In this document: piece after piece, positions 15,632 to 50,925 of the stretch
Layout: the number at the start of each line of letters is the position of its first letter
Position numbering within the stretch: position 1 is the first letter of the stretch
Assembly (NCBI GenBank): GCA_033762625.1
Contig: JANRLI010000005.1
Location: 99,954 to 163,953 of the forward strand
Length of the DNA stretch: 64,000 nt
DNA from: Alphaproteobacteria bacterium
GTDB taxonomy: Bacteria; Pseudomonadota; Alphaproteobacteria; UBA9219; RGZA01
Reading direction: 5' to 3'
Translations under genes and position numbers: made by a program
Notes under the pieces: model-generated
What the model was told of the DNA's origin: nothing
The model's input: only the letters and a program-made list of their open reading frames with translations
The model's database searches: none

Positions 15632-15633
15632 AC

Positions 15634-35055: not shown

Positions 35056-35146
35056 TGGTTTCAGTGACGGTGAAACGATGCTTATCCACAAGCTAATTAA
35101 TAAAATAAAGCCTAAATCAACCCCAAACCCTCATCGCTAATAAGGA

Positions 35147-36214
35147 TTGCACTTACCGCCATATCCTTTAAAAAGAGGGGCTATTCCTCATTTAAATGGC
35201 TTAGATTTCTGTATGACACGCATCTCCGTCTGCACGCCCTGTTTCAATGAACGCGAAAGCATCCGCCGCTGCTATGAGACAGTGCGCAAGGTTTTCGAAG
35301 AAACCATGCCGGATGTCGAGCGCGAACATATTTTTGCGGATAATGGTTCAACCGATGGCACCGTAGAAATTCTGCGCGAAATTGCCGCCAATGATCCATG
35401 CGTCAAAGTCATTCTGAATATGCGCAATTTCGGAATCATTCGCAGTTCCATGAACGGTATTCTTAGCTCGTCAGGCGATGCCGTATTCATGTTCATGCCA
35501 GCCGATTTGCAGGACCCGCCAGAACTGATGCCGCAATTTGTGAAATTGTGGCGTGAAGGGTATGAAGTCGTATATGGCACCCGCGAAATTCGTGAAGAGC
35601 ACCCGCTTATGCGTAGCGTTCGCGAGATGTATTACAAAGTTTTGCGTGCATTTTCCAGTGTCCAGCTGCCAATGAATATCAGTGATTACCAATTGCTGGA
35701 TAAGCGTGTGATTGATGCGATGCGCCAGTTTGATGATGCGTATCCGTTCGTGCGTGCCATGCCGTTTCAATGCACATCGCGTACTATTGCTGTGCCCTAT
35801 ACATGGCGCGCCCGCGCAGCCGGTGTTTCGAAAAACCGCCTTTTTAATCTGATTGATCAAGGGCTAAACGGTTTTATTGCAACAACCCATGTTCCTATTC
35901 GCTTGGCGTTACTGGCAGGCTTTCTAATTTCCGCATGCAGCATTTTGTATGCGGTAGTGAATGTGGTTGGCAGTTTGTTTGCGCCAGAACCGATGGTGGG
36001 CGCGGGTATTCGTACGTTGATTGCAGGTATGTTTTTGTTCAATGGTATAATTTTATTCTTCTTGGGTGTTTTGGGCGAATATGTACTTTCCATTCACCAG
36101 CAAGTGCGCCGCCCGCCGCGCGTCGTTGAACGGGAGCGGATCAATTTCGATACCCCGCCGCGCACCCAGCAAAGTAGTGAAGAAACCGAACAGAAACAAC
36201 GGCGCGCCAGCTAA
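35147..36214 (+). CDS. GT2 polyprenyl-phosphate glycosyltransferase (GtrB/ArnC/DPM1-like) with a C-terminal 2-TM anchor
   Basis: ISVCTPCFNERESI, FADNGSTDGT and DLQDPP GT2 motifs. C-terminal TM pair ...AGMFLFNGIILFFLGVLGEY. An alternative start at 35213 is possible. Confidence 0.8.
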   Translation: MHLPPYPLKRGAIPHLNGLDFCMTRISVCTPCFNERESIRRCYETVRKVFEETMPDVEREHIFADNGSTDGTVEILREIAANDPCVKVILNMRNFGIIRSSMNGILSSSGDAVFMFMPADLQDPPELMPQFVKLWREGYEVVYGTREIREEHPLMRSVREMYYKVLRAFSSVQLPMNISDYQLLDKRVIDAMRQFDDAYPFVRAMPFQCTSRTIAVPYTWRARAAGVSKNRLFNLIDQGLNGFIATTHVPIRLALLAGFLISACSILYAVVNVVGSLFAPEPMVGAGIRTLIAGMFLFNGIILFFLGVLGEYVLSIHQQVRRPPRVVERERINFDTPPRTQQSSEETEQKQRRAS

Positions 36215-36215
36215 G

Positions 36216-36983
36216 ATGGTTATTGTTATTACAGGTGCATCGTCAGGGATTGGTGAAGCGTTATGCTTGCACTATGCCATGCGCGGGAACACCATTTGCC
36301 TGTTGGCACAGAATCTGACGGCGCTGGAAAACGTGGCTGAACGCTGCCGTGCGCAAGGTGCAACGGCGTTTGTATATGGCGCCGATGTCAAGGATGCTCC
36401 AGCGATGCAACGCGCAAGCGAAGCGATAATTCATGAGGCGGGCGTGCCGGATATTGTCATTGCCAATGCTGGTATCCGTATTGAAGACCCCGCAAGCTAT
36501 GTGGGTTCAAATGCTGCCTATGAAATCATGATGGTGAATTATATTGGTGTCATTAATACGTTTGCTACCTTTATTGAGCCTATGAAAAAAAATGGAAAAG
36601 GGCATCTCTGCGCGATTTCAAGCATTGCCGCATACCGCGCTACACCCAACTCGGGCATTTATTCTGCATCAAAAGCGGCGGTAAATTTATGGACCGAAGC
36701 ACTGCGTCTTAAACTTGTGCCACACCATATTCATGTGACCACTGCGGCATCCGGATTTGTGCGCACGGCGATGACCGCTGATTTATCGTTTCATATGCCA
36801 GGCATTTTATCCGCAGCGCAGGCCGCCGCTATTATTTCCAAGGCGATTGCCGATAAAAAAAGCCGCATCATGTTTCCGTGGCAGTCGCGTTTCATCTGGA
36901 GCATGTTTTGCGCGATGCCGGGATGGCTTTACGATGGCGTTATTTTATGTGCCAAAAAATACTGGCCGTCCCGCAACGATTAG
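36216..36983 (+). CDS. Short-chain dehydrogenase/reductase
   Basis: MVIVITGASSGIGEAL with YSASKAAV. The start is 2 nt after the upstream stop. The longer ORF from 36066 overlaps the GT2 gene and is unlikely. Confidence 0.7.
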   Translation: MVIVITGASSGIGEALCLHYAMRGNTICLLAQNLTALENVAERCRAQGATAFVYGADVKDAPAMQRASEAIIHEAGVPDIVIANAGIRIEDPASYVGSNAAYEIMMVNYIGVINTFATFIEPMKKNGKGHLCAISSIAAYRATPNSGIYSASKAAVNLWTEALRLKLVPHHIHVTTAASGFVRTAMTADLSFHMPGILSAAQAAAIISKAIADKKSRIMFPWQSRFIWSMFCAMPGWLYDGVILCAKKYWPSRND

Positions 36984-37005
36984 AAATGCGTAAGGGCTGC
37001 ACGTT

Positions 37006-37881
37006 TTGCATGCAGTGCCGTTAAAAAATCCCGTTTTCTATTATTTTTCCGCTGTTTTGCTTGTAGTTTTGCTAGGCAATTCATACAAAGAAAAATATAC
37101 TTACCGGCTTCTTGGCATCACCGTGATGCTTTTTCCCCTAATGGATGCGCGCTGCTTTATGAAATTCGAAGATTATTCCCATACGTTTTTGCATTTTCAT
37201 ACAACAGAAGTGCCAGCGATATTAAAAAAATACCTTTCGGGCAATGTTGGGCTCGTGGATTTGGGGGCGGGCGATGGCAACTTGCTTATATCCCTAAAAA
37301 CCGCAGGCCTGCTGGATCAGTTTTCCAAAGTTGTTGCCGTTGAACTATCCCAAGAACGCTGCGAGCGGCTTCGCACCTATACCAATTTCAAAGTCATCTG
37401 CGGGGATGCCACCAATGTCAGCGAGCTGGAACCAGAAAGCTTTGATTTTGTTTTATGCACGCAGGTGATCGAACACGTGGATGAAGCCAAACTGCTTGCG
37501 CAAATTTCAAAGCTATTAAAGCCGAATGGTACCGCCTATATCGCATCGCTGATTAAAGAAAAGCATGGCTGGTGGTATTATCGTACGGCGGATGGCAAAT
37601 GGGCATTAGACCCCACCCATTTGCGCGAATATGAATCAGTCGAGCAATATGAAGCAGTGATTAAAAAGGGCGGATTTACCATTGTAGAAACAGTAACCAG
37701 CCGTTTGGAACTTTCAATCATTGAGTTTGTGCTGCGTAGAATTGTCGTTCCGCTGTTCAAGCCGGAGCATATTCACAGCTTCTTTATTCAATATCCATTT
37801 GCAGACTGGATACGCAGGCATTTTAACGTGCGCCCGCCCGGTTACCATATTGTTGAAACCATCGCGAAAAAAGCACAATGA
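37006..37881 (+). CDS. Class I SAM methyltransferase
   Basis: VDLGAGDGNLLISL motif I. The true start may be a downstream internal Met. Confidence 0.6.
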   Translation: MHAVPLKNPVFYYFSAVLLVVLLGNSYKEKYTYRLLGITVMLFPLMDARCFMKFEDYSHTFLHFHTTEVPAILKKYLSGNVGLVDLGAGDGNLLISLKTAGLLDQFSKVVAVELSQERCERLRTYTNFKVICGDATNVSELEPESFDFVLCTQVIEHVDEAKLLAQISKLLKPNGTAYIASLIKEKHGWWYYRTADGKWALDPTHLREYESVEQYEAVIKKGGFTIVETVTSRLELSIIEFVLRRIVVPLFKPEHIHSFFIQYPFADWIRRHFNVRPPGYHIVETIAKKAQ

Positions 37882-38300
37882 ATTTGATAGCATTAAAAGA
37901 AAAAGTGGTAATGCGGTATGCGATGATCGGTGTTGTTAACACTGTGTTCGGGTTCAGTTTTTTCCCTTTTTTCTATTGGCTGTTCCATTCCATTCTGGAA
38001 ATCAATATTCTGGTTACATTAAGCCATTTGTGTTGCGCGTTATTTGCATTTTTTTCTCATAAATATCTGACCTTTCGTTCTGACGAAAAGGTGCATCTGG
38101 AAGGCGGAAAGTTTATCGTAACGCAGGCAATTACATGGACCATCAATATTGCTATGTTGAATGTGGCTATGGCGTTACTTGATTGGAGCCCGTTTGTCCT
38201 GCAAATGCTGATTTCGGTTTTTTTGACGATTAGTAATTATTTTGTTTACAAGTACTTTGTTTTTCTGTCGCCAAAAGGCAAGCCGCGCGAACAGCATTAA
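37878..38300 (+). CDS. gtrA: GtrA-family small membrane protein (polyprenyl-P-sugar flippase family)
   Basis: 140 aa, 4 TM. MRYAMIGVVNTVFGFSFF ... YKYFVF GtrA signature. Confidence 0.75.
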   Translation: MNLIALKEKVVMRYAMIGVVNTVFGFSFFPFFYWLFHSILEINILVTLSHLCCALFAFFSHKYLTFRSDEKVHLEGGKFIVTQAITWTINIAMLNVAMALLDWSPFVLQMLISVFLTISNYFVYKYFVFLSPKGKPREQH

Positions 38301-38330
38301 TCTATTCCACCCCAACCTGAGAATTTCTGA

Positions 38331-40688
38331 ATGTTATCTAGGTTATTTCAAACACTGGCAACCACAGCGGTTTCCAAACTAAGCAAAGCTTATCTGTGGG
38401 TTGGCAGTGCATTCAAGAAACATACCCGATTGTCTGCGGATGATTTAAGCATTGTCGGCGCTTATTGCGCAGCCATGGGCTTGGCAAGCTGGTCTATTTT
38501 CCGTTGGCTGTCGTTTGTTGCAGCGGATATTTCCTTTGAGTGGAATAGCGGTGTTGGCCCCACGCAGATCATCTTTAATACCACATTAATTACTTATGCA
38601 ATTTTGGTGTGTTCGGTAATCGGTCTCGTTGCGTTGCTATGGGTATGCGAAGCGTTACCTTTCATGCGCCGTTTACTGGTACGGCTTGCCAACGCCTGCT
38701 CGGTGCTGCTGTTGCTGTGTTCATGTGCGGCGGTATTTATTACATCTTTGGTAATCGCGCGGATTTATTTTATTATTACATTCCTGGTTTTTGTGCCGCA
38801 TGCGGTGTGCTTCTTTAAAAGTCAGACTGTGATTATGATGAAAAATCATTCCAGTGGCTTTATTCGATATGCCATGCCGTTAGTGTTATTTGTGCCGCTC
38901 GCTCTGGCATTCGCACTTGCCATCAAAGCGTGGTTTCCGGTGCAAATTCCGAATGATTATATTGAAGTAGCCGATACGGTGGTGTTGCATGGAAAGGATA
39001 ATGTGCAAACAAAGACCATTAGCCGCTCCGATGCTGTGGATTGCATGGAGGCGGCCAAGTACCCAGATAGCAATTCAAAATCGAATGGTTCACAACTAAA
39101 GCCGCAGATAAAAAAATCTGCCAAGGATGATGCCAGCATTCCCAGATGCCGTTTTGATATATCGTCAACCCAGTTACAGAAGCTATATGAACCTGTTCTT
39201 AAAACGGGTACATGGCAAGCGCAGGCAGGGCGTTTATTATATCATCACTCGTACGTATTTGTTCCTGCTATTCATGCGCTTCACTATGGGTTGGCGTCAC
39301 CCATTCCTTATCTTTACGGTCTTGGCAACACGTTGTTTCATGCCGCATTGCTGCATCTGACATCGCCTACCCTGACCAGCTATTTTGACACTTACCCGAT
39401 TGCGCAATTGACGGGCATTTTGTGTATTATGTTATTGATTTCGTATATCTCGCGTAACAGCTATGCGGCCGTGGCCGGGTTAAGCGTTGTACTCGTTGCC
39501 TTGTTTCAGTTGAAGTTTGAATTTGTGTTATTGCCACCTGGCTTTAGCCCGCTGCGCTATGCGGGGTTGGCACTGCAAGTTGCATCGATTTTTCTTTTAT
39601 TCCGAGGGACCTCGCTTTTACGCCCGTTTGGCATGATGCTGGCGCTTGCAGCCTCATTTTTCTGGAATGCAGAATATGCGATGATTGGCGCTGTTGGGCA
39701 GGGCATGGCATTGGTATCGCCGCAATACCGAATATCCGCATGGGGGCGTTTTGGCTTTCTGGGCTTGGCAGCATTGATCGCTGTTGGCGGCATGGTTGGA
39801 AATGGCTGGTATTCTACAGGTTACTTGCAGGGAATGGCGTTGGGGCTGTTTGGCCTTTTCCCGATGTTACCGACGAACTATTTCCTGGTGCTTTGCGCGC
39901 TGGTTGCTACGGGAATTGGGTTGCTTATATATGCGACAAAGCAATTTACGGCTAGTGAAGCGATGGCCCGCCTATGCGTGTTGCCTATTATGGCGTTATT
40001 GGTTGTTAAGTTCCTTTTCTATGCATTGGCCGTACATCTTTTCTATAGCATGATGTTTATAGTGCCGCTCGTACTGACATATATTGATTGGTCGAACCGT
40101 CGTCATTCATCGGTGACTGTTAACCGCCGCTGGATGGAGGCATCATTTGCGGCTAGTTTCGCGTTGCTGGCCTTTATTAACTCCATTACCTATTATTCAA
40201 GCGCACTTAAGTTCCGTGAAATCATGTCGGATCCATTTGGCACTTATCAGTGGTCAGGAATTGGCGAGCACTTTAACACCAATATTCCCCCTGAACCGAT
40301 TGTTAGCCGCGTTGAAGCGGTGCGCTCACAATTGCGTGCGGGGGATAGAGTGTTGTTCCTGTCGCCGTTTGATCATCTGCTATCCTTTTATACCAATCCC
40401 CAGCATTACTGCGGACATTTTGAAATCGTGTTAAACCCAATAACAACAAAAATGGTGCGGTCACTTGTGGACTGTGCGCGTGATTCCACGCAGCTGTTAA
40501 TAGTATATGACGAGGCGGAAAGATACGCATGTCCTGATGGATGGCGCGCGCAGTATTATGATAGGCCTTCATGCGAGTATAAACGAAATCTCAAGCAAAA
40601 CGCGCTGACCATATTACGCGCGCTGGGTGATGATATTGTTCCGGTCACAAAAATCGGGCCGCTTACTTTTTACCGAAAAAACCATTAA
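38331..40688 (+). CDS. Large polytopic membrane protein (>=12 TM) with a C-terminal soluble domain; candidate GT-C glycosyltransferase
   Basis: 785 aa. Hydrophobic throughout with a ~170 aa hydrophilic C-terminus. Sits immediately after gtrA. Confidence 0.45.
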   Translation: MLSRLFQTLATTAVSKLSKAYLWVGSAFKKHTRLSADDLSIVGAYCAAMGLASWSIFRWLSFVAADISFEWNSGVGPTQIIFNTTLITYAILVCSVIGLVALLWVCEALPFMRRLLVRLANACSVLLLLCSCAAVFITSLVIARIYFIITFLVFVPHAVCFFKSQTVIMMKNHSSGFIRYAMPLVLFVPLALAFALAIKAWFPVQIPNDYIEVADTVVLHGKDNVQTKTISRSDAVDCMEAAKYPDSNSKSNGSQLKPQIKKSAKDDASIPRCRFDISSTQLQKLYEPVLKTGTWQAQAGRLLYHHSYVFVPAIHALHYGLASPIPYLYGLGNTLFHAALLHLTSPTLTSYFDTYPIAQLTGILCIMLLISYISRNSYAAVAGLSVVLVALFQLKFEFVLLPPGFSPLRYAGLALQVASIFLLFRGTSLLRPFGMMLALAASFFWNAEYAMIGAVGQGMALVSPQYRISAWGRFGFLGLAALIAVGGMVGNGWYSTGYLQGMALGLFGLFPMLPTNYFLVLCALVATGIGLLIYATKQFTASEAMARLCVLPIMALLVVKFLFYALAVHLFYSMMFIVPLVLTYIDWSNRRHSSVTVNRRWMEASFAASFALLAFINSITYYSSALKFREIMSDPFGTYQWSGIGEHFNTNIPPEPIVSRVEAVRSQLRAGDRVLFLSPFDHLLSFYTNPQHYCGHFEIVLNPITTKMVRSLVDCARDSTQLLIVYDEAERYACPDGWRAQYYDRPSCEYKRNLKQNALTILRALGDDIVPVTKIGPLTFYRKNH

Positions 40689-40706: not shown

Positions 40707-42320
40707 ATGTCAGGCATAACGACGCTCCCTCGCAAATGGATATGGTTCTGGATTACAGCACTGCTTGTTGCGGGTTCGGTAGCGGTTTGGCATCACATGC
40801 CCATCATGCCGGATGAAATTGCCATACGCGTTCAAGCGGGCAGATTTATTCAGGATCAGGGAATGGCAACCGGGCTTTTCGCATTATGTGCCAACCGGTT
40901 GCAAGCCGTACCGGGGATTTTTATTCCTTCAGCATGGCTATTATCATTGGGCGATCTCGCTTTCTCGCCGATTGATTTGCGCGTTATATCCATTAGCGCC
41001 TTGGTGTTATGCGCTGTTATTGCAATGCGGGGTGCTTTTAAAAATGCCAATCATGCAGCAATGCTTTGGATGGTTGCTGCATTTTTGGGTGTATCCGGTT
41101 CAACGCTGGTATTTTTCCGCTTCGAAGTTTTTTTGATCATCCATCTTTGCTTGTGTATGACAGCGTTACAGGTGCTCAAAAAAAATCAACCTGGAATCTT
41201 GCATCTGGTGTTAACAGGCGCGCTGCTTTTTAGCCTGCTCACCATGGGGTATGTTCACCCGCAAGCATTTCTGTTTATCCCTTTAACTGCTTATTTGTGC
41301 TACAGGCTAATATGTGGAACGCGTATTGACGTGGTTAAACTGTTTATTGGTCTTGCGCTGTTTGCAGGTATCGCGGTGACCATTCATTTCTTTTTTCAAT
41401 TGTCATGCGTTGGACATAAAGAAATCGAAATCTTTTGGGGTGAAATGATTTTTGATATGTCGCGATTGGTATCGGCTGATTTTTTCAATATTATAAAAGA
41501 AAAATTCAAGCTCTTTGCATTTTCATTTACATACAACGATTCCTATACCATCGGCTATTTGCCAGGCATTACCAAGGATATGTTTGCAGCGCGAGGCATT
41601 CTAAATGCGGCTATTGTTATTGGTTTGTTGATGGTGATGGTAACAGGCGTAATGCTGGGATGCGCCTATGTATATCGCTTTGTTGCAATATACATCCTGC
41701 GCCGTCAACAACCGGCAGGGTTTGATTTGGATGCCGCGGTAGGATTCAGTTTTATCTTTTTTCCTTCGCTGTTTTATTTACTTTACGATGCGCATCTTTA
41801 TTTTTACCGGTCTTTTATCATAAATTTTTTATTCGTTATTGCTGTGGTCATCGGCCTTTCCACGATTGATAACAAACTACTCAAGACAATAACTGCCTAC
41901 GCGGGAGGGGTTTTATGTCTTGTTTGTGCATTTTCCATTTACACAAATTTTGCCTATTTTTATAAACCCATACAAACCTATGAGGGCCCTTCTGCATCGC
42001 TAGATCGCGATTGGGCACACGCACCTGAACGGCTAAACCGTTTTGCCCAGAGCTGCGGGATTGATTTGACCAAAGGCGGCGGGATTATTGATGATGTTAC
42101 CTATGAGGGGGTGAAGCAGTACCCGCGTGTCTATCAAATTACCTACCTTGGGCTACAAATGGGGCTTGCTAAGATAAAGCCTGAAACGGTAATAACCACT
42201 TTAAAGCCTAATTATGTATTGGCGCGCTGCAGCGAAATGGAAGCGATAGGGCTTGGTTGGCCGGCTGATAAGCAAGAAGGCGATCTTTGCTGTAAACGCT
42301 ATAGCCCCGCGTCAGAATAA
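40707..42320 (+). CDS. Polytopic membrane protein, candidate GT-C glycosyltransferase (GtrC-like)
   Basis: 537 aa, multi-TM. Acidic first-loop motif MPDEIAIR typical of GT-C catalytic DE/DD loops. Confidence 0.45.
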   Translation: MSGITTLPRKWIWFWITALLVAGSVAVWHHMPIMPDEIAIRVQAGRFIQDQGMATGLFALCANRLQAVPGIFIPSAWLLSLGDLAFSPIDLRVISISALVLCAVIAMRGAFKNANHAAMLWMVAAFLGVSGSTLVFFRFEVFLIIHLCLCMTALQVLKKNQPGILHLVLTGALLFSLLTMGYVHPQAFLFIPLTAYLCYRLICGTRIDVVKLFIGLALFAGIAVTIHFFFQLSCVGHKEIEIFWGEMIFDMSRLVSADFFNIIKEKFKLFAFSFTYNDSYTIGYLPGITKDMFAARGILNAAIVIGLLMVMVTGVMLGCAYVYRFVAIYILRRQQPAGFDLDAAVGFSFIFFPSLFYLLYDAHLYFYRSFIINFLFVIAVVIGLSTIDNKLLKTITAYAGGVLCLVCAFSIYTNFAYFYKPIQTYEGPSASLDRDWAHAPERLNRFAQSCGIDLTKGGGIIDDVTYEGVKQYPRVYQITYLGLQMGLAKIKPETVITTLKPNYVLARCSEMEAIGLGWPADKQEGDLCCKRYSPASE

Positions 42321-42323
42321 ACC

Positions 42324-43022
42324 ATGACCAAAAAAGTCGCCATCGTTCAGTCAAATTACATCCCCTGGAAGGGATTTTTTGACATGATTGCCGCAGTAGA
42401 TGAATTCATTTTATATGATGATATGCAATTCACGCGGCGGGACTGGCGCAACCGTAACCAGATTAAAACCCCGCAGGGGCTTTCATGGCTATCGGTACCT
42501 GTCCAGTCCAAAGGAAAGTACGACCAAAAAATCAGGGATACGGAAATCGATGGGACGGATTGGGCTGCATCGCATTGGAAGTCCATATCGCTTAACTATG
42601 CGCGCGCACCGCATTTCAAGGAAATCGCCGAATGGTTGCAACCCATTTACCAGCAGCAGACATTCACCAATCTGTCCGTTTTGAACCGCACCTTGATTGA
42701 AGCGGTGTGTAACTATCTTAGTATTAAAACTGTCATTAAAAATTCATGGGATTATAAATTAATAGACGGAAAAACCGAACGCCTTGCCGATTTATGCAAA
42801 CAGGCGGGTGGCAGTGAATATATCTCTGGCCCTGCGGCCAAAGACTATATCGATGATACGGTTTTCGCCCATTACGCCATTAAACTGACGTGGTTTGACT
42901 ACCAAGGGTACAGCGAATATCCTCAGCTTTGGGGTGATTTTGCGCATAATGTGAGCATTGTCGATCTGCTGTTTAATTGTGGCAAAGATGCCCCGCGCTA
43001 TATGAGGTTTGTCAAATCATGA
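42324..43022 (+). CDS. WbqC-like family protein
   Basis: [45 protein letters not shown] matches the WbqC family N-terminus. Confidence 0.75.
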
Positions 43023-43968
43023 AGCTATCCCCATGAAACTATCGATTGTTGCCACGCTTTATAAATCGAGCGCGTATATTGATGCGTTCCACCAGCGGTG
43101 CAGCGCGGTTGCCACGGCCTATGCAGGCGATGACTACGAAATCGTACTAGTCAATGATGGCTCGCCTGATGATAGCTTGCAGCGCGCAATTGCCCTTTCG
43201 CAAAAGGATGCGCATGTGGTGGTGGTTGATTTGTCGCGTAATTTTGGTCACCACAAGGCAATGATGACTGGCCTTGCGCAGGCAAAAGGTGAGCGCATTT
43301 TTTTAATCGACAGCGATTTGGAAGAAGAACCTGAATGGTTGTCGTTATTCCAAGCGCAAATGGATGCTGAAGATTGCGACGTTGTGTTTGGCGTTCAGGA
43401 AAAACGCAAAGGCAACTGGCTTGAGCAATGTTCAGGCCCTGTCTATTACAGCATCTTCCGCTTGTTCACTGGTATCAATCAGCCAGATAATATCGTAACC
43501 GCACGCCTGATGACGCGCCGTTATGTCGATGCGCTGCTGCTGCATAAGGAGCGCGAGCTCAATATCGGCGGTTTGTGGATTATCACCGGCTTTAAGCAGA
43601 CAACACAGGTTGTCAAAAAGCACGAAACCAGCCCCACTACGTATTCGATTGCGCATAAGGTGGGCCATTTGGTCAATGCGGTAACATCGTTCAGCAGCAT
43701 GCCGTTGGTATTCACCTTTTATGCCGGGCTTTTCATTTCATTTGGCGCGCTGGTTTATATCGCGCATCTTGTCATTCATTATCTGTTTGGATCCGCGCCG
43801 CCCGATGGCTATACATCCATCATTGCATCGATCTGGCTGTTTTCTGGGCTGATTATTTTCTTTCTTGGGGTGCAGGGAATTTATATCTCCAAACTGTTTA
43901 TGGAAGTGAAGCAGCGCCCCTATACCATCATCCGCCGCATCTATGGCCGCAACAACGGAGGCGGCTAA
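43009..43968 (+). CDS. GT2 polyprenyl-phosphate glycosyltransferase (GtrB/ArnC-like) with a C-terminal TM anchor
   Basis: [23 protein letters not shown] and DSDLEE motifs. C-terminal TM pair. The likely real start is at 43033 (MKLSIV). Confidence 0.8.
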
Positions 43969-44597
43969 TGTCCAGCGCTTCCAAGCTTGCGGATGTTGCA
44001 ACCTATTACACAGAAAAACTGACCGCGCACGGGCAAACTGCGCGCGGCGTTGATTGGAATGGTGAAGAAAGCCAGAACCTGCGCTTCACGCAGCTGTGCA
44101 AAATTATTGATCCGGAATTGAAGGATTTTTCAATCAATGATCTGGGGTGCGGCTATGCCGCGCTTGTAGATTTTTTGGTACAGCGCCATCCGCATTTCTC
44201 GTATAACGGGTTTGACGTATCGCAAGCGATGCTGGATGCCGCGATGGAACGCCATAAGGGTAAGCCAACTATTCGTTTTGGGTTGGCAGATAAGCCGGAC
44301 GCTGTAGCCGATTATGGTATTGCCAGCGGCATTTTTAATGTGCGGTTGAAACAGACTGATGCCGAGTGGCTTCAGCATTTTGAAGCGACGCTGGATGAAT
44401 TGAACCGTACCAGCCGCCGCGGGTTTGCATTCAATGCGCTCACATCCTATTCCGATGCCGATAAAATGCGCGAAAACCTTTATTACGCATCCCCTGCGAC
44501 AATTTTTGACATATGCAAGAAGCGCTATTCCCGTAATGTTGCGCTTTTGCATGATTATGATCTTTACGAATTCACGATTTTGGTGAGGAAAGCATGA
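43968..44597 (+). CDS. Class I SAM methyltransferase
   Basis: INDLGCGYAALVDFL motif I. TAATG-coupled. Confidence 0.55.
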   Translation: MSSASKLADVATYYTEKLTAHGQTARGVDWNGEESQNLRFTQLCKIIDPELKDFSINDLGCGYAALVDFLVQRHPHFSYNGFDVSQAMLDAAMERHKGKPTIRFGLADKPDAVADYGIASGIFNVRLKQTDAEWLQHFEATLDELNRTSRRGFAFNALTSYSDADKMRENLYYASPATIFDICKKRYSRNVALLHDYDLYEFTILVRKA

Positions 44598-46504
44598 CAA
44601 TTGAAGCAACGCTTCTGTTTTTAGTGACCCTGGTTGCATGTTACATCGCTGTTCGCAAAAGCGTTGCCTTGCAAGGATTGTCCGTTCGGTTTGCCGATGT
44701 TCTTCAGCGCCGCGCTTTTCCCGCGCCATCGGATTTTGAGCATATCAAATTTGCGTTTCTGCGCATCATTTTTGGCGGATTATTGTTGAACCGCGCAGTT
44801 CAGATATTCATTTATATGTTGCCGGAAGAATATGGAACCGCGGCTGGCCTGTGCGCAATCGCTACTATTGTTTCAGCGGTATTTGTTATGGTTGGCCTCT
44901 TCACGCAGTGGTCGTTGGTTTTTTCGATGGGTTTCCTGTGGCAAACCAGCGAAGGAATTTTAAAAAACTCTACCCTTGGCAATGATATTGCTGCGGCGCT
45001 GAGCCTTTTATTATTGCTTACCAGCGCAGGAAAGTTTTTGTCGGTAGATGGTTGGATACTGAGCCGATTGAAAAACAAATCATGGTGCAATTTGCTGCTT
45101 TATGATCATGACATTCCCAGCAAACGTACCATCGCCCTTGCCAAATTCGTATCGTTGTTTGCTTATTTTTTGGTATGTGTATTTTCCATCTGCGTGCATT
45201 TGCATGAATCCGCATGGATGACAGGGGTGGCTGGCCCTTATCTGCTCAGCAATAATTTTATGACTGCGCCGCATGAATTCTTCACACAATTATTTGTGCA
45301 ATATCCGATTGCAGTCATTATCGCCAAATTCTCCCTTTGGGTGATGATGGTGTGGTATCCCACCATTATTCCGTTTGTGTTAATGGGCGGGATATTCCGG
45401 TGGTATATTGTGTATTGGGGCTTGGCGTTTTTGATCTTGTCGTCATTCGTATTGCAACTTGGCTCCCTTGCCGAATTTGAATTTGTGTTCTGGGCGGGGA
45501 TTTTCTGGGCCAATACTGCCCTTGATAGTCGAAAAAAACTATCTGTCTATTATGACGACACCTGCAACTTATGTGACCGCACGGTGCTGGTCATTACTGT
45601 GCTGGATATTTTCAATCGTGTGGCACTGCGTCCGTTATCAAAACATACTGAAGAATTGCGCAGTTATGGCATAAGCCATGAAGCCGCGATGCAAAATCTT
45701 TATGGTATTCAGGAAGAAAACGGCACAGCCAAACCCGGCACAGTCACTTCGGGTACGGTAAAATTCGGATATGATTTTTATATCATGCTGGCAAAGAACC
45801 TGTTCCTGTTGTGGCCGGTTTTGCCATTCTTGTATTTAGGTAAAATTCTGCTGATTGGCCCTGCCATTTACAGCCTTGTTGCCCAAAAACGCCATGCCAT
45901 GTTTGGGGTATGCAAACTTCCCACCAAGAAAGTAGAACGCAGCGCGCCCGTTACTTCAGATAAATTGCCGATTGCGGGTAACGCCGTTGTGTTGCATGTG
46001 ATGTTGATGGCTTTGTGCTATATCGTAGCCATTCCGTATCCTTATCTTAATATTCAGGGCTTTGATAATATTGGCGCGAAAGCGGCAGCATTTTACGGGA
46101 TTGCGCCGATTAATGTCTTTAACCGCGAAGATCTGCGTATGGCCGAAAACTGGTTCACGCTGCGTGATATTAAAAATGATAGCATGGTGCCGTTATTTGC
46201 CAAGGATGGATCACGCTTGCGCATGCACCGTTCTGATCGTGTTTATTTTGGCCATACGTTACTTTTCCGCAGATCGGTCATCGATAAAGAAGGATGTTTC
46301 TTTAATGAATGGCAGGCGCAGATGGAATACCTATCGAAGGTTTATCTGCATAGTATCAATGCACCTGCTGGTACATATCCATTTGAATATGTACAGTATA
46401 AACAACCCTTACCCAACGATGCCAAGGTGAACATAGGCGAATACGTATTGGAGCCCGTTACCACCCCATGCACAAAGACTTATGATATAGATTACAAACC
46501 ATGA
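44594..46504 (+). CDS. Fusion membrane protein: N-terminal HTTM domain plus DCC-family (DUF393) thiol-disulfide oxidoreductase-like domain, then a C-terminal soluble domain
   Basis: HTTM signature FAFLRIIFGGLLLNRAVQ with ~8 TM. DUF393 motif VYYDDTCNLCDRTVLVITVLDIFNRVALRPL. ATGA-coupled on both sides. Confidence 0.6.
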   Translation: MTIEATLLFLVTLVACYIAVRKSVALQGLSVRFADVLQRRAFPAPSDFEHIKFAFLRIIFGGLLLNRAVQIFIYMLPEEYGTAAGLCAIATIVSAVFVMVGLFTQWSLVFSMGFLWQTSEGILKNSTLGNDIAAALSLLLLLTSAGKFLSVDGWILSRLKNKSWCNLLLYDHDIPSKRTIALAKFVSLFAYFLVCVFSICVHLHESAWMTGVAGPYLLSNNFMTAPHEFFTQLFVQYPIAVIIAKFSLWVMMVWYPTIIPFVLMGGIFRWYIVYWGLAFLILSSFVLQLGSLAEFEFVFWAGIFWANTALDSRKKLSVYYDDTCNLCDRTVLVITVLDIFNRVALRPLSKHTEELRSYGISHEAAMQNLYGIQEENGTAKPGTVTSGTVKFGYDFYIMLAKNLFLLWPVLPFLYLGKILLIGPAIYSLVAQKRHAMFGVCKLPTKKVERSAPVTSDKLPIAGNAVVLHVMLMALCYIVAIPYPYLNIQGFDNIGAKAAAFYGIAPINVFNREDLRMAENWFTLRDIKNDSMVPLFAKDGSRLRMHRSDRVYFGHTLLFRRSVIDKEGCFFNEWQAQMEYLSKVYLHSINAPAGTYPFEYVQYKQPLPNDAKVNIGEYVLEPVTTPCTKTYDIDYKP

Positions 46505-47166
46505 AACAAAAGCTGGTCATCTTTGGAGCAGGAGAGATTGCGCAATTGGCGCATTATTACTTCACGCATGATAGCGATTATGAAGTCGTGGCGTTTACGG
46601 CTGATAGCGCCTTTATCAAAGAGCCCGTATTCTGCGGATTACCCGTGGTGGCGTTTGAAGAAGTCGCACAGATTTACCCGCCATCCACCCATGATTTTTT
46701 TGTGGCGCTCAGCTATTCCAAATTGAATTTGCTTCGTAAGGACAAATACCTTGCCGCAAAGGCAAAGGGCTATCGGCTCGCCAGCTATATCAGCCCCAAG
46801 GCGAGTGTGTTGAATGATGGCCGTATTGGGGAAAATTGCTTTGTTTTTGAGGACAACACCATCCAGCCTTTTGCGCATATCGGCAATAACGTGACGTTAT
46901 GGAGTGGTAATCATATTGGCCATCATTCAACGATTAAAGACCATAGTTTCATTTCTTCGCATGTGGTGGTGTCGGGCGGTGTAGTGATTGGCGAGCAATG
47001 CTTTATCGGCGTCAACGCCACGCTTCGTGACCACATCACGATTGGTGATCGCTGCGTTATCGGGGCTGGCGCTATTCTTCTTTCCAATGCGGAAGCCGAA
47101 GGCGTTTATATGGGCAGTGAAACGGAACGCTCCAAAGTGCCCAGTACACGCTTGAAAGCCATATAG
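46501..47166 (+). CDS. NeuD/PglD-family sugar N-acetyltransferase (hexapeptide repeat)
   Basis: N-terminus KLVIFGAGEIAQLAHYYFTHDSDYEVVAFTAD is NeuD-like. C-terminal left-handed beta-helix hexapeptide repeats. Confidence 0.8.
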   Translation: MKQKLVIFGAGEIAQLAHYYFTHDSDYEVVAFTADSAFIKEPVFCGLPVVAFEEVAQIYPPSTHDFFVALSYSKLNLLRKDKYLAAKAKGYRLASYISPKASVLNDGRIGENCFVFEDNTIQPFAHIGNNVTLWSGNHIGHHSTIKDHSFISSHVVVSGGVVIGEQCFIGVNATLRDHITIGDRCVIGAGAILLSNAEAEGVYMGSETERSKVPSTRLKAI

Positions 47167-48078
47167 ATGGGTGCGTGGAAAAAACTTGGAAAGCTGTATT
47201 CCTTGCCGGAAGGCGGGGTGCACCCCAAACTTCTTTCCCATACCGCCAACCCGTTGCCTGTATTGCTGGATGGCGATGTCTATCGCATTTTTTACAGTAG
47301 CCGCGATAAGGATAACCGTTCATCTGTTGGCGCGGTAGATATGGATATTGTGAAGCGCAGCGTGGTGCGTGAGCACACCGAGCCGCTTTTCGAAGTTGGC
47401 GAAAAGGGCAGTTTCTATGAAGCAGGCGTCAGCATCGGCAATTGTTATGAAGCAGACGGAAAAACCTACATGCTGTTTATGGGCTGGCAAAATCCGGATG
47501 GCGGGCATTGGCGCGGCGATATAGGACGTTTGCGTGTTATGCCAGATTTGTCATTACAGCTTGATAGTGCGCAGCCGTTTATGGGCGTTGATGCGATTGA
47601 TCCCATCAGCCTTTCATATCCTTGGGTGATTAAAAACGCGGATGGCAGTTATTCCATGTGGTACGGTTCCACGCAAAGCTGGGATGCAGGAAATGGTGAA
47701 ATGCTGCATGTAATTAATGGCGCGTCATCACATGATGGCCATAACTGGAAACGTGAAGGATTGGCGGTTCCATACCAGTTGGGTGTGGCGCAGGCATTTT
47801 CGCGGCCCACGGTCGCGCGGGATGAACATGGCTATAAAATGTGGTTTTCATACCGCAGCGGTGCAGGCGAGACGTACCGTATTGGGTGCGCGTCGAGCAA
47901 GGATACTAAGGAATGGAAATTGGCGTTAGACCAATCGGGGATTGATGTTTCAACCGATGGCTGGGATAGCGAGATGATTGAATATCCCTTTGTTTTTGAC
48001 CACAAGGGCCAGCGTTATATGCTGTATAACGGTAACGGATACGGGAAAACCGGTTTTGGTCTGGCAGTGCAGGTATGA
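47167..48078 (+). CDS. Five-bladed beta-propeller protein, GH130/DUF377-like (putative glycosidase or glycoside phosphorylase), tentative
   Basis: N-terminal NP...DG.YRIFYS motif and repeated W/Y-rich blades. Starts immediately after the NeuD stop. Confidence 0.4.
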   Translation: MGAWKKLGKLYSLPEGGVHPKLLSHTANPLPVLLDGDVYRIFYSSRDKDNRSSVGAVDMDIVKRSVVREHTEPLFEVGEKGSFYEAGVSIGNCYEADGKTYMLFMGWQNPDGGHWRGDIGRLRVMPDLSLQLDSAQPFMGVDAIDPISLSYPWVIKNADGSYSMWYGSTQSWDAGNGEMLHVINGASSHDGHNWKREGLAVPYQLGVAQAFSRPTVARDEHGYKMWFSYRSGAGETYRIGCASSKDTKEWKLALDQSGIDVSTDGWDSEMIEYPFVFDHKGQRYMLYNGNGYGKTGFGLAVQV

Positions 48079-48479
48079 ACGAAGCATTGAATATAAAAGC
48101 AACGGCAATACAGTTCGTGCGTTATGCCATGGTGGGGCTTGTTTCCAATGTAATGGGTTATCTGATCTATTTGCTGGTAACCTATCTGGGTATGGCTCCA
48201 AAAATTGCAATGACTTTTTTATATGGAGTTGGTGTGACCATCAGCTTCTTCGGCAACCGCTATTTGGTGTTTGCGGATGGCGGCAGATTGAAAACAACGG
48301 GCATTAAATTCATAGCGGCTTATCTCATCGGGTATTTTTTGAACCTTTCGCTGTTAATTGTGTTTGTTGACCAGATGGGGTATCCGCATCAAATCGTGCA
48401 GGCAATTGCAATTTGCGTTGTTGCGGTATTTCTGTTCTGTGCGCTTAAAGTTTTTGTCTTTAAAAAGGATGCGCCATGA
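48075..48479 (+). CDS. gtrA: GtrA-family small membrane protein (second copy)
   Basis: 134 aa, 4 TM. VRYAMVGLVSNVMGYLIYLLV ... NRYLVF. Confidence 0.7.
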   Translation: MNEALNIKATAIQFVRYAMVGLVSNVMGYLIYLLVTYLGMAPKIAMTFLYGVGVTISFFGNRYLVFADGGRLKTTGIKFIAAYLIGYFLNLSLLIVFVDQMGYPHQIVQAIAICVVAVFLFCALKVFVFKKDAP

Positions 48480-49348
48480 AACGGTGTTTAGCATGCGGTG
48501 GATATTATAATTCCACTTACCCAAATTGCCCGCAATGCCACGTAAAACCCCAATTAATAGATGGATTTGAAGCGCATGCCCCAGCTTTCGCGCGTGAAAG
48601 CAGCGGGTTCAAGCCAGAATATTTCTCCGAGTTGGCCAAGCTTGAAGCCGCCAATTTCTGGTTTAAATCGCGTAACGCGATACTTGTATGGGCGTTAAAA
48701 ACCTATGCGCAGGTTTTTGGCTCGTTCCTTGAAATTGGTTGTGGCACGGCGTTTGTATTGTCCGGAATTGCTGCGGTATTTCCAAATGCCAAATTATTTG
48801 GCAGTGAAATTTTAACCGCAGGCCTCGGTTTTGCTGCGCAGCGTTTGCCCCAGGCAAAATTCATGCAGATGGATGCGCGTGATATTCCGTTTAAAGACGA
48901 GTTTGATGTGATAGGCGCATTCGATGTGCTTGAACATATTGAAGAAGACCAACAAGTGCTGGCGCAAATTCATCAGGCCTTAAAGCCGCAGGGTATTGTT
49001 ATGCTGACTGTGCCGCAGCATGAATGGCTGTGGAGTGCAGCAGATGAATATGCCTGCCATGTGCGCCGCTATACACGTGAAGAAATTGAAACCAAGGTAA
49101 AAAAAGCAGGCTTCAAAATTTTGCGCAGCACGTCATTTATTACAGTATTGCTGCCCGCCATGATGGCTTCGCGCCTGTTGTCAAACAAAGTACCCGTAAA
49201 GGAATATGATGCGCAGGCGGAGCTACGACTGCCCCAATACGTCAATTCATTGTTTTTATTGCTTTTAAATTGCGAGCTGGCCCTGATTAAATTAGGCATT
49301 AATCTGCCGATTGGTGGATCACGGCTAGTGGTCGCCAAACGTATCTAA
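48476..49348 (+). CDS. SAM methyltransferase with an N-terminal CxxC...CxxC zinc ribbon
   Basis: CLACGGYYNSTYPNCPQC, then LEIGCGTAFVL motif I. Confidence 0.65.
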   Translation: MKRCLACGGYYNSTYPNCPQCHVKPQLIDGFEAHAPAFARESSGFKPEYFSELAKLEAANFWFKSRNAILVWALKTYAQVFGSFLEIGCGTAFVLSGIAAVFPNAKLFGSEILTAGLGFAAQRLPQAKFMQMDARDIPFKDEFDVIGAFDVLEHIEEDQQVLAQIHQALKPQGIVMLTVPQHEWLWSAADEYACHVRRYTREEIETKVKKAGFKILRSTSFITVLLPAMMASRLLSNKVPVKEYDAQAELRLPQYVNSLFLLLLNCELALIKLGINLPIGGSRLVVAKRI

Positions 49349-49364
49349 TTTTCGGAGTTGTGTT

Positions 49365-50498
49365 ATGGCGCCATCCCGCATTCCCTTTAACCTGCCGCAC
49401 ATGACGGGCAAGGAAATGGAATATATTGCGCAATCGCATCGCAATGGAAAATTGGCAGGTGATGGCCCTTTTACCAAGCAATGTCATGGTTGGCTCGAAC
49501 AACGCACAGGTTCTGCTAAAGCATTACTGACCCATTCCTGTACGGCTGCGTTGGAAATGGCGGCGTTGCTTTTGGATATTCGGCCGGGTGATGAAATCAT
49601 CATGCCGTCTTATACCTTTGTGTCGACGGCTAATGCATTCGTACTGCGCGGCGGTGTACCGGTGTTTGTCGATATCCGGCCCGATACACTGAATTTAAAT
49701 GAAAACTTAATTGAAGAAGCAATTACGCCGCGCACGCGCGCAATCGTACCCGTGCATTATGCCGGTGTTGCATGCGAGATGGATGCAATTATGGGTATTG
49801 CAAAAAAGCACAAACTTGCTGTGGTTGAAGATGCAGCACAGGGGGTGATGGCAAGCTATAAGGGTAGAGCGCTGGGCAGCATCGGCGATTTGGGGGCATA
49901 TAGTTTTCATGAAACCAAGAATGTTATTTCGGGCGAAGGCGGCGCATTGCTGGTCAACCGTCCGGATATGCAGCTGCGCGCAGAAATCATCCGTGAAAAA
50001 GGAACAGATCGCAGCCGTTTTTTCCGCGGTGAAGTTGATAAATATACATGGCAGGAAGTAGGATCATCATTCTTGCCCGGCGAGTTGATTGCTGCATTCT
50101 TATGGGCCCAATTCGAACAGGCCGATGAAATTACCAAAGGCCGTATGGAGGCATGGAATTATTACCATGACCAGCTATCACACTTGGAAGGCAAAGGCGT
50201 ATTACGGCGTCCACTCATTCCTAACGCATGCCAGCATAATGCCCATATGTATTATGTTTTGCTGGCTGAAGGCATTGACCGTCAGTACGTGCTGAACGAA
50301 TTTAAAAAACAAGATATTTCCTGCGTATTCCATTATGTGCCGCTGCATTCATCGCCTGCTGGTTTGAAATATGGCCGTGCGCATGGTGAATTGAATGTCA
50401 CGGATAAACAGGCTGAACGGTTAGTACGCTTGCCGTTATGGGTTGGGTTAAGCCGCGCACAACAAGATAATGTGATTGATATTTTAAAAGCGCTTTGA
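49365..50498 (+). CDS. DegT/DnrJ/EryC1-family aminotransferase (WecE/ArnB-like 4-amino sugar transaminase)
   Basis: 377 aa. ...SFHETKNVISGEGGALLV catalytic Lys region and EDAAQGVMA motif. Confidence 0.85.
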   Translation: MAPSRIPFNLPHMTGKEMEYIAQSHRNGKLAGDGPFTKQCHGWLEQRTGSAKALLTHSCTAALEMAALLLDIRPGDEIIMPSYTFVSTANAFVLRGGVPVFVDIRPDTLNLNENLIEEAITPRTRAIVPVHYAGVACEMDAIMGIAKKHKLAVVEDAAQGVMASYKGRALGSIGDLGAYSFHETKNVISGEGGALLVNRPDMQLRAEIIREKGTDRSRFFRGEVDKYTWQEVGSSFLPGELIAAFLWAQFEQADEITKGRMEAWNYYHDQLSHLEGKGVLRRPLIPNACQHNAHMYYVLLAEGIDRQYVLNEFKKQDISCVFHYVPLHSSPAGLKYGRAHGELNVTDKQAERLVRLPLWVGLSRAQQDNVIDILKAL

Positions 50499-50559: not shown

Positions 50560-50633
50560 TGGTTGGGGGACGTGGATTCGAACCACGGTAAACAGAGTCA
50601 GAGTCTGTTGTCCTACCGCTAGACGATCCCCCA
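50560..50633 (-). tRNA. tRNA-Gln (anticodon CUG)
   Basis: Manual fold of the minus strand: UGGGGGA acceptor with a U1:A72 pair, D-arm GUCU/GGAC, anticodon stem ACAGA/UCUGU with loop CUCUGAC, T-arm CGUGG-UUCGAAU-CCACG, discriminator A and encoded CCA. Confidence 0.85.
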
Positions 50634-50673: not shown

Positions 50674-50925
50674 CTATTTTTTGCCGGTTGTTTTATCATA
50701 CACATATCCAGCGCCAGCGCCCACTGCGCCGCCAATGGCCGCGCCACACGCAACACAGCCGCCTGTCATTACCGTCACGGCTGCGCCAGTTCCTGCGCCA
50801 ATTGCACCGCCGGAAAGGGTGCGTTGCTGCGTTGTGTTCATATCGCTGCAAGCAGTCAGGCCAACCAAAACAGTTACAAGTAAAGCCATGGCGCGAATGC
50901 TGCGTGAAGTGAATATCGAATTCAT
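50674..50925 (-). CDS. Glycine-zipper lipoprotein (17 kDa surface antigen / Slp-like)
   Basis: Lipobox LTAC. Gly-zipper GAIGAGTGAAVTVMTGGCVACGAAIGGAVGAGAGY. Confidence 0.6.
   Translation of the reverse strand: MNSIFTSRSIRAMALLVTVLVGLTACSDMNTTQQRTLSGGAIGAGTGAAVTVMTGGCVACGAAIGGAVGAGAGYVYDKTTGKK

Follow-up and report, generated by a model that had tools for sequence, protein, structure and literature searches.

What is made by a tightly packed run of sugar-modification genes in an alphaproteobacterium known from a metagenome-assembled genome (MAG), and what is the role of the 636-aa membrane protein encoded in its midst? The window is the whole 64,000-nt stretch of DNA that was analysed, and all coordinates are numbered along it. 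A first-pass annotation had regarded the genes at 42324-50498 as not belonging to a described system. We consider it probable that they form a module for a lipid-linked N-acyl-amino sugar, that this module is homologous to the LOS-IV capping genes of Mycobacterium marinum, and that the 636-aa protein is an accessory of it.

The interval 42324-50498 is filled by nine co-directional ORFs, all on the + strand, and their translational coupling, as noted in the first-pass annotation, is real. Four junctions are ATGA overlaps (209-aa methyltransferase/636-aa gene, 636-aa gene/NeuD-type gene, propeller/GtrA, and GtrA/290-aa methyltransferase), the GT2 and 209-aa methyltransferase genes share a TAATG, the NeuD-type and propeller genes meet at TAGATG, and the remaining genes are separated by gaps of at most 16 nt. 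A gene for a GT-C-fold protein (40707-42320, + strand) stops 3 nt upstream of the WbqC gene. The earlier statement that no GT-C protein lies inside the module was literally correct, but the module had been drawn too tightly, and the best explanation of 40707-50498 is a single ten-gene "three-component" extracytoplasmic glycosylation module. Its upstream neighbor is a sister module (26633-40688, + strand), whose genes encode, in order, an AroB-like protein, a YerE-like TPP enzyme, RfbF, RfbG, RfbH, an epimerase/reductase, a 348-aa protein, a second PgfS/ArnC-type GT2, an SDR, a methyltransferase, a second GtrA and a 785-aa polytopic protein. Downstream, the array of glycan genes ends at a tRNA-Gln(CTG) gene (50560-50633, - strand; ARAGORN), beyond which lie housekeeping genes.

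The last gene of the module encodes a dTDP-4-amino-4,6-dideoxy-hexose (WecE-type) aminotransferase (49365-50498; TIGR02379, 645 bits; NF008687, 619 bits), which NCBI names a Fuc4N transaminase (galactose-configured). Candidate tailoring proteins include a NeuD/PglB/VioB-type sugar N-acyltransferase (46501-47166; TIGR03570, 188 bits) and a WbqC-family protein (42324-43022; PF08889, 278 bits), for which a profile search gave no PDB relative. Two class I SAM methyltransferases are encoded here, one of 209 aa (43968-44597; Methyltransf_25/12/11) and one of 290 aa (48476-49348; Methyltransf_23/11/12/25), the latter being kept in most cassettes; a third that had been counted earlier (37006-37881) belongs to the upstream module. 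The 303-aa protein at 47167-48078 is a five-bladed beta-propeller with partial profile matches to GH117 (2e-8), GH130 phosphorylases (5e-8, 1e-5), GH43 and GH32. The GH117 matches are as good as those to GH130, and these profiles place the protein in the GH43/32/117/130 superfamily only, which is the level at which the former label "GH130-like" holds. It is presumably cytoplasmic, since it has no hydrophobic N-terminal segment.

The remaining three proteins of the core cassette are those expected to handle the lipid-linked sugar. The polyprenyl-phosphate GT2 (43033-43968; PF00535; GtrB/ArnC/PgfS type, LosA-like) matches PgfS (E 5.6e-47) and ArnC (E 2.5e-32) along its entire length and has two C-terminal TM helices (residues 233-251 and 270-288). 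Its scores fall below the equivalog cutoffs, so it is not itself PgfS or ArnC. Its start is ATG 43033, as supported by the NCBI record (311 aa); TTG 43009 was rejected as a start. GtrA (48075-48479; PF04138, 67.3 bits; cutoff 26.1) is a small membrane protein and putative lipid-linked-sugar flippase. The GT-C-fold glycosyltransferase (537 aa, polytopic), proposed as the terminal transferase, has both the GT-C fold and an acidic motif in the first extracytoplasmic loop; it has no Pfam match, and its family is unclassified. HMM searches thus bore out the earlier calls of WbqC, GT2, DCC, NeuD, GtrA and aminotransferase. The idea that a 4-amino sugar is made, loaded on polyprenyl phosphate and flipped agrees well with the WecE-type transaminase, the PgfS/ArnC-type GT2 with its TM helices, and GtrA.

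Judged by sequence homology, these genes correspond, in a proteobacterium, to the M. marinum LOS-IV capping genes (losA/MMAR_2313, WbqC and MMAR_2318-2323). The LOS cluster of M. marinum contains homologues of ten window genes, namely losA, WbqC, MMAR_2318-2323, the TPP enzyme and the DHQS-like gene; the M. marinum gene identities were fixed via accessions, NCBI names and locus L135. In tblastn comparisons of the window with the LOS-IV set, identities were 30-71%, with at least 58% of the length aligned and full-length alignments for most. The acyltransferase is 71% identical to MMAR_2321 and the aminotransferase 71% to M. marinum WecE (MMAR_2320), followed by the WbqC protein (64%), the 209-aa methyltransferase (60%, MMAR_2322), the GT2 (47%, to the GT2 at the losA position), the 636-aa protein (41%, MMAR_2323), the propeller (38%, MMAR_2318) and the GT-C protein (30%, MMAR_2319). 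In the upstream module, the TPP enzyme and the DHQS-like protein are 50% and 35% identical, respectively, to proteins encoded in the LOS (caryophyllose) region of M. marinum, and in both organisms this branched-sugar module adjoins the LOS-IV set. The gene order differs; the window adds an in-line GtrA and the 290-aa methyltransferase, whereas M. marinum adds ABM, PhyH, LCM and TetR genes.

This homology connects the window to published phenotypes and does not support the view that the system had not been described. LOS-IV is lost on loss of MMAR_2318, MMAR_2319, wecE or MMAR_2321 (PMC4703794; PMC5706390), MMAR_2318 being required for LOS-IV (PMC4703794) and MMAR_2321 deletion abolishing it (PMC5706390), so that LOS-IV-negative mutants are on record for four of the ten homologues. 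For losA a LOS defect is reported, and an mmar_2323 transposon mutant was recovered in the same Dictyostelium screen; in the literature surveyed, we found no LOS phenotype for an MMAR_2323 mutant. Extracytoplasmic formation of LOS-IV has also been published: its terminal sugar is an N-acyl-4-amino-4,6-dideoxy-galactose, pyrrolidone-acylated and added outside the cytoplasm, and conversion of LOS-III to LOS-IV requires prior MmpL12 export, with polyprenol-dependent GT2s invoked (PMC12507525; PMC4403928). A synthetic LOS-IV fragment that matches the natural NMR spectrum carries a 2'-carboxy-3'-hydroxy-4'-methoxy-1',3'-dimethyl-5'-oxopyrrolidine-2'-carboxamide. The acyl group thus holds a gem-dicarboxylated (aminomalonate-type) carbon. 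According to Rombouts 2010, the LOS-IV acyl sugars reportedly exist as diastereoisomers.

The module also resembles the three-component glycosylation systems GtrA/GtrB/GtrC, ArnC/ArnEF/ArnT, PpgS/Rv3632/Rv3779 and CsbB/GtcA/YfhO, all of which, like the window, combine a GT2 synthase, a small membrane protein and a GT-C. In the Arn system, as here, a DegT-family aminotransferase supplies a 4-amino sugar. Unlike these systems, the window would use a dTDP-derived 4-amino-4,6-dideoxyhexose, has an extensive predicted acyl tailoring set (WbqC, two methyltransferases and the propeller) and encodes a GT-C from an unclassified family without a Pfam match. Nor do they have anything equivalent to its carboxylase-like accessory enzyme.

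This accessory is the three-part, 636-aa membrane protein of the MMAR_2323 family (44594-46504, + strand), which comprises a GGCX/HTTM-like polytopic domain (residues 1-305; 44594-45508), a DCC1-like thiol-disulfide oxidoreductase domain (residues 318-438; 45545-45907; PF04134, 52.2 bits against a cutoff of 27.8), a TM helix (residues 460-479) and a C-terminal alpha/beta domain (residues 490-636; 46061-46501; AF2 secondary structure). The only PDB match of its structural model is human vitamin-K gamma-carboxylase (GGCX), and the HTTM domain of the first-pass annotation is thus upheld by predicted fold but not by Pfam. The HTTM/VKG_Carbox models gave no match to the N-terminal part at E<=10 and matched 0 of 26 family members at E<=1; a PDB profile search with the protein was empty. 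The fold is shared with GGCX/HTTM enzymes, but there is no HMM-level similarity. The DCC domain, with the motif D-D-T-C-N-L-C-D (D321, D322, C324 and C327 conserved in the family), occurs in 25 of 26 homologues and is predicted to be cytoplasmic by the positive-inside rule. The C-terminal domain, which is probably periplasmic, is conserved through the family and kept in a variant lacking the DCC domain (L099).

LOS-IV chemistry suggests, by analogy, what such a protein may do. GGCX produces a malonate-type carbon and its bacterial relative MloH carboxylates an aspartyl alpha-carbon, and the gem-dicarboxylated carbon of the LOS-IV acyl group suggests a glycan-directed carboxylase. It has also been predicted independently that an HTTM-DCC protein with a TM-DUF5819 partner mimics the whole of GGCX (bioRxiv 10.64898/2026.08.19.745780). 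The 636-aa protein differs from GGCX in its inserted, probably cytoplasmic DCC domain, and the surroundings of its gene point to a glycan pathway, not to a peptide or polyketide substrate. In a weak hhalign alignment to GGCX (probability 3-5%), the FRxxFG and SVDG motifs are kept and W208 pairs with W223; the catalytic K218 is replaced by L203, K217 by the invariant H202, N159 by N130 and H160 by D131. Carboxylation specifically can be put forward only tentatively.

A somewhat doubtful alternative is that the protein tailors the sugar without carboxylating it, either with its GGCX-like domain serving as base or oxidase in a different reaction (acyl ring closure, epimerisation or hydroxymethyl-to-carboxyl oxidation) or as a polyprenyl-binding scaffold whose DCC domain does thiol chemistry. 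In its favor, Lys218 and probably His160 of GGCX are not conserved in the weak alignment, and the family instead has an invariant His202/Glu205/Trp208 cluster. The vitamin-K tunnel of GGCX holds an isoprenyl tail, so the fold could bind undecaprenyl chains. A Leptospira GGCX orthologue is said to epoxidise vitamin K without carboxylating. Many hosts of the gene (Pseudomonas, Rhizobium) are ubiquinone-only and are not known to have menaquinone, which also counts against the carboxylase reading. No particular alternative reaction is positively supported, however, and among the chemical features of LOS-IV only the gem-dicarboxy carbon fits what HTTM enzymes are known to do.

Less likely still is a housekeeping role in general membrane redox reactions or quinone handling, with the protein hitch-hiking in some copies of a mobile glycan cassette and leaving the sugar untouched. 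The core cassette is widespread in metagenomes, and the 636-aa gene is present in only about 10% of cassettes (2/19 to 3/28 of the metagenome loci whose flanks were long enough). About 12 genomes with full 10-kb flanks carry the gene on its own. Pseudomonas, Neorhizobium, Hyphomicrobium, Variovorax and Bosea have no cassette within 10 kb of it, and its neighbors are unrelated genes such as those for GTP cyclohydrolase I and glutaredoxin (Pseudomonas) or DoxX and Rdx (Neorhizobium). Moreover, it is 41-48% conserved across phyla, compared with 60-85% for cassette enzymes. Against this, 25 of 46 species-level genome loci of its homologues have the 209-aa methyltransferase/NeuD genes within 10 kb, most of them together with WbqC, GT2 and propeller. 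The linked homologues among these 46 loci come from Alpha-, Beta- and Gammaproteobacteria and Chloroflexota; a linked mycobacterial example was obtained in separate look-ups, outside the 46-locus count. The position of the gene varies (between the 209-aa methyltransferase and NeuD genes, upstream of GT-C/WbqC, or downstream), which is hard to square with a single inherited accident, and one relative has tandem paralogues inside its cassette. Both junctions of the gene in the window are ATGA overlaps. Finally, the family is small (133 representatives at E<=1e-30 among 1.84 billion), so chance adjacency to the cassette is improbable. The first-pass annotation had taken absence of the HTTM-DCC gene from orthologous clusters as the sign of a passenger, and about 90% of orthologous cassettes do lack it; however, over half of the loci that carry the gene have the cassette nearby, in varying arrangement, and the gene is therefore an optional accessory of the cassette and not a random passenger.

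An ordinary cytoplasmic O-antigen or capsule cluster, with a chain-building GT2 and export by Wzx/Wzy or ABC proteins encoded elsewhere, is very improbable: WecE, the NeuD-type acetyltransferase and WbqC are typical of O-antigen clusters, and the related locus L005 has an ABC2_membrane + ABC_tran pair between the two modules, but a search found no Wzx, Wzy, Wzm or Wzt family among the genes at 26633-50498, the full-length alignment and paired C-terminal helices of the GT2 are those of polyprenyl-phosphate glycosyltransferases, GtrA and the GT-C fold are present, and the counterpart step in M. marinum is extracytoplasmic (PMC12507525).

For the lipid-linked amino-sugar module, we infer the following order of substrates. 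WecE would convert dTDP-4-keto-6-deoxyglucose to dTDP-4-amino-4,6-dideoxyhexose, after which the NeuD-type acyltransferase, WbqC, the two methyltransferases and the cytoplasmic propeller would build an elaborate N-acyl group. The GT2 would then put the sugar on polyprenyl phosphate, with GtrA assisting flipping. As an optional tailoring enzyme, the 636-aa protein, with the putative active site of its GGCX-like domain at the periplasmic interface, may use membrane quinol and O2 to generate a strong base that deprotonates, and probably carboxylates, an N-acyl carbon on the flipped lipid-linked sugar or the product, giving a gem-dicarboxy carbon as in LOS-IV; its DCC domain may re-reduce the quinone as a built-in VKOR analogue. 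The GT-C protein would move the sugar to a surface glycolipid or LPS acceptor at the outer face of the cytoplasmic membrane. In M. marinum this acceptor is a trehalose lipooligosaccharide, which is not expected in the alphaproteobacterial host, so the acceptor there is probably a different one.

The interval 42324-50498 is packed with nine forward-strand ORFs with hardly any intergenic DNA between them, and the translational coupling described in the first-pass annotation is confirmed: there are four ATGA overlaps, one TAATG and one TAGATG junction, and the other gaps do not exceed 16 nt. Searches of Pfam and NCBIfam bore out most of the gene composition proposed earlier. They identified WbqC (42324-43022; 278 bits), a family-2 glycosyltransferase, GT2 (43033-43968), that aligns end to end with the PgfS and ArnC models, a small class I methyltransferase, MT209 (43968-44597), a DCC1-like domain (residues 318-438) within a 636-aa protein (44594-46504), a NeuD/PglB/VioB acyltransferase (46501-47166), GtrA (48075-48479), a second methyltransferase, MT290 (48476-49348), and a WecE-type dTDP-4-amino-4,6-dideoxyhexose transaminase (49365-50498; 645 bits), all on the forward strand; the interval thus holds two methyltransferases, not the three that had been counted. 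The GT2, whose true start is the ATG at 43033, carries two C-terminal TM helices, as in polyprenyl-phosphate glycosyltransferases. A PDB sequence-profile search with WbqC came back empty, and the NCBI annotation of the alphaproteobacterial source MAG is consistent with the domain assignments.

The cassette had also been described as having no obvious terminal GT-C transferase inside it, but a 537-aa ORF with a GT-C fold (40707-42320) ends only 3 nt before WbqC. The protein has no match in Pfam or NCBIfam, even at E<=10; its AlphaFold model, built with nine homologues, reached pLDDT 82. P35-D36-E37, directly behind TM1, is invariant in the family, and one homologue is labelled RgtA/B/C/D-like by its source. 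In other cassettes, the gene immediately upstream of WbqC encodes a polytopic protein of 520-660 aa with a D-E motif behind TM1. Across loci these proteins form at least three families (at least two besides that of the window) with no mutual relation detectable by BLAST, hmmsearch or hhalign, and those from other loci have no significant Pfam match. Such sequence-unrelated families would fit acceptor-specific transferases, the GT-C fold having been tested and demonstrated in the window's family only.

A mycobacterial homologue match led to the lipooligosaccharide (LOS) cluster of Mycobacterium marinum, whose genes were identified from NCBI names and from the order of the accessions ACC40767-40772. 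The counterparts are MMAR_2318 (propeller; 38% identity to the window's, which lies at 47167-48078), MMAR_2319 (GT-C; 30%), MMAR_2320 or wecE (71%), MMAR_2321 (N-acyltransferase; 71%), MMAR_2322 (methyltransferase; 60%) and MMAR_2323 (636-aa protein; 41%). The region also contains a WbqC 64% identical to the window's and, at the losA position, a GT2 47% identical to the window GT2, its gene number being taken from gene order. LOS-IV is lost in MMAR_2318, MMAR_2319, wecE and MMAR_2321 mutants, and LOS-III build-up was reported for the first three (PMC4703794; PMC5706390). An mmar_2323 transposon mutant came out of the same Dictyostelium screen, where its LOS profile was unreported. Export of LOS-III by MmpL12 must precede LOS-IV formation, and DPM-like GT2s are thought to provide its polyprenol-linked donors (PMC12507525; PMC4403928). 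The MMAR_2319-family GT-C is likely the transferase for the terminal-sugar step. Given these mutants and the extracytoplasmic formation of LOS-IV, the logic of the window's pathway has already been proposed, with genetic support, in mycobacteria. The earlier reading of an amino sugar that is made, loaded onto undecaprenyl-P and flipped was right in its logic, and the accompanying claim of an undescribed system was not. Judged by sequence, the window cassette is the proteobacterial version of the mycobacterial pathway. Clustered at 90% identity, the NeuD-type acyltransferase of M. marinum falls together with 74-155-aa M. tuberculosis fragments annotated as DegT or TDP-4-oxo-6-deoxy-D-glucose transaminase, and MMAR_2318 is given as an Rv1502 homologue; decayed cassette remnants thus seem to be kept in M. 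tuberculosis.

A second forward-strand, three-component module of the same logic lies upstream (26633-40688). It encodes an AroB-like protein, a YerE-like TPP enzyme, RfbF, RfbG and RfbH (CDP-3,6-dideoxyhexose chemistry), an epimerase/reductase, its own PgfS/ArnC-type GT2 accompanied by an SDR, a methyltransferase and a second GtrA, and a 785-aa polytopic protein for which Pfam and NCBIfam gave nothing even at E<=10. Its TPP enzyme shares 50% identity with the one encoded in the caryophyllose region of M. marinum, a hint at a branched sugar of the yersiniose/caryophyllose type; a DHQS-like gene of the LOS region is 35% identical to its window counterpart, and the upstream module has its parallel in the branched sugar of this type on the M. 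marinum LOS glycolipid. As called mechanically, from a GTG at 36066, the SDR ORF shares 149 nt (36066-36214) with the GT2 ahead of it. Since its adh_short match begins only with residue 52, translation probably starts about 45-50 codons further in. Neither Wzx/Wzy nor ABC exporter families were found within 26.6-50.5 kb of the window. A third sugar-modification group (10177-18607) comprises a DegT aminotransferase, two methyltransferases, a dTDP-sugar 3,5-epimerase-like gene and a 1012-aa ORF, and biotin synthesis genes (BioA/BioF/BioB-like; 19200-23198) sit between it and the main array. Directly behind the last cassette gene, the array is terminated by a reverse-strand tRNA-Gln(CTG) (50560-50633), followed by a small glycine/alanine-rich lipoprotein-like ORF (50674-50925, reverse strand) and housekeeping genes. 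An acquired island might end at the tRNA and the lipoprotein-like ORF; no clear GC break is seen in the composition profile.

How tightly the 636-aa gene is bound to the cassette was examined in both directions. The forward scan of species-representative genomes yielded 47 loci, 46 with a full or partial 636-aa homologue and one matching the DCC domain only; mycobacterial loci were obtained by separate look-ups. MT209 and NeuD lie within 10 kb of the homologue in 25 of the 46, mostly with WbqC, GT2 and propeller too, and these loci cover Alpha-, Beta- and Gammaproteobacteria and Chloroflexota. The gene varies in position: some loci have it between MT209 and NeuD, others ahead of the GT-C/WbqC pair and others again downstream. 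In about a dozen homologue loci the flanks are complete but free of the cassette. In the reverse scan, a propeller profile searched against metagenomes gave 80 loci, 37 of them with at least 5 kb upstream; among these 37, NeuD and WbqC each occur in 36, MT209 in 34 and GT2 in 30. The 636-aa gene itself is present in only 2/19 to 3/28 metagenome cassette loci with adequate two-sided flanks, plus one DCC-less variant. The core cassette is thus common, and the GGCX-like gene is an accessory that need not be present but strongly prefers this cassette. The 636-aa family itself is small, counting 133 representatives (E<=1e-30) among 1.84 billion. Identities across phyla are 60-85% for cassette enzymes and 40-48% for the 636-aa protein, and both are plasmid-borne in Rhizobium sp. 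YTU87027 and Roseobacter sp. S98, observations compatible with horizontal cassette spread. In a related alphaproteobacterial MAG (L005), the cassette contains a tandem pair of paralogues of the 636-aa protein (10001-13780), with 59% and 48% identity to the window protein. This MAG also has a PhyH dioxygenase and one more methyltransferase, and its two sugar modules have an ABC2/ABC_tran pair between them.

The DCC1-like domain is the sole Pfam-visible part of the 636-aa protein, although the family is conserved across phyla along its entire length. Its HTTM part and C-terminal domain gave nothing in Pfam/NCBIfam even at E<=10, the HTTM and DUF5819 models matched neither it nor any of 25 homologues, and a PDB sequence-profile search with the family was empty. 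A model from 26 sequences (pLDDT 88.9) had fourteen entries of human vitamin-K gamma-carboxylase (GGCX) as its only Foldseek matches in PDB at E<0.01 (probability 1.0), so the HTTM call made earlier is right at the level of fold, though no HTTM model supports it at the level of sequence. Aligned to the verified GGCX sequence by hhalign, at a probability (3-5%) too weak to decide catalytic residues, the family keeps FRxxFG-like and SVDG motifs and pairs Trp208 with Trp223, with Leu203 opposite Lys218, the catalytic residue, and invariant His202 opposite Lys217 (GGCX assignments from PMC12647623). By the positive-inside rule, the CxxC-containing DCC domain is probably cytoplasmic and the C-terminal alpha/beta domain, behind TM helix 460-479, probably periplasmic. 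Two-gene pairs of HTTM-DCC and TM-DUF5819 proteins are predicted to mimic entire GGCX and MloH (bioRxiv 10.64898/2026.08.19.745780); the order of parts equals that found here, but here it is a single chain with no DUF5819 match. A cassette-linked relative (L099, 3497-5146) has the HTTM-like and C-terminal domains without DCC (profile matches 33-310 and 463-611 only), so the DCC part is dispensable in at least one lineage.

The LOS-IV terminal sugar is alpha-4-amino-4,6-dideoxy-Gal with a pyrrolidone acyl group (PMC5706390). We took the acyl structure from the name of a protected fragment in the total-synthesis supplement; after deprotection it is 2'-carboxy-3'-hydroxy-4'-methoxy-1',3'-dimethyl-5'-oxopyrrolidine-2'-carboxamide (PMC7821131), a name by which the amide carbonyl and a free carboxyl both sit on C2', which is thus an aminomalonate-type carbon. 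GGCX makes Gla (PMC12647623) and MloH performs aspartyl alpha-carboxylation (bioRxiv 10.64898/2026.08.19.745780); known HTTM enzymes thus produce carbons of exactly this type. Carboxylation of N-acetyl to N-malonyl (cf. E. coli K10 Qui4NMal) was considered and dropped, as LOS-IV homology offers a better-founded target.

We therefore put forward, tentatively and as a rather doubtful reading, that the MMAR_2323/window family is the first in the vitamin-K-carboxylase superfamily to act on a glycan: a one-polypeptide vitamin K cycle (catalytic HTTM, VKOR-like DCC) carboxylating an N-acyl carbon on the outer side of the cytoplasmic membrane and yielding the aminomalonate-type carbon of the LOS-IV pyrrolidone. 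The substrate would be an amino sugar on a polyprenyl carrier, modified at a carbon acid of its N-acyl group, and the enzyme, acting at the outer face, would install the C2' carboxyl or provide the strong base for a ring-forming step; the cytoplasmic DCC domain may recycle the quinone as a VKOR analogue, and the two cassette methyltransferases may make the N-methyl and O-methyl. Against the proposal stand the non-conservation of Lys218 in the weak hhalign alignment, the lack of HMM similarity and the absence of the gene from most cassettes, which under the carboxylase proposal would make a descarboxy variant. Many hosts of the family, such as Pseudomonas and Rhizobium, are ubiquinone-only organisms not known to have menaquinone, which also counts against it.

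What is new here is that a GGCX-like/DCC enzyme is placed in a glycan pathway with a specific candidate reaction. An anonymous cassette that is widespread in the environment is linked to a mycobacterial surface sugar of defined chemistry and immunological activity, and bacterial HTTM-DCC proteins gain a concrete, cheaply testable substrate hypothesis. If the proposal is true, the origin of the unusual gem-dicarboxy pyrrolidone in LOS-IV would be explained, and vitamin-K-type carboxylation would reach beyond proteins and peptides to glycans.
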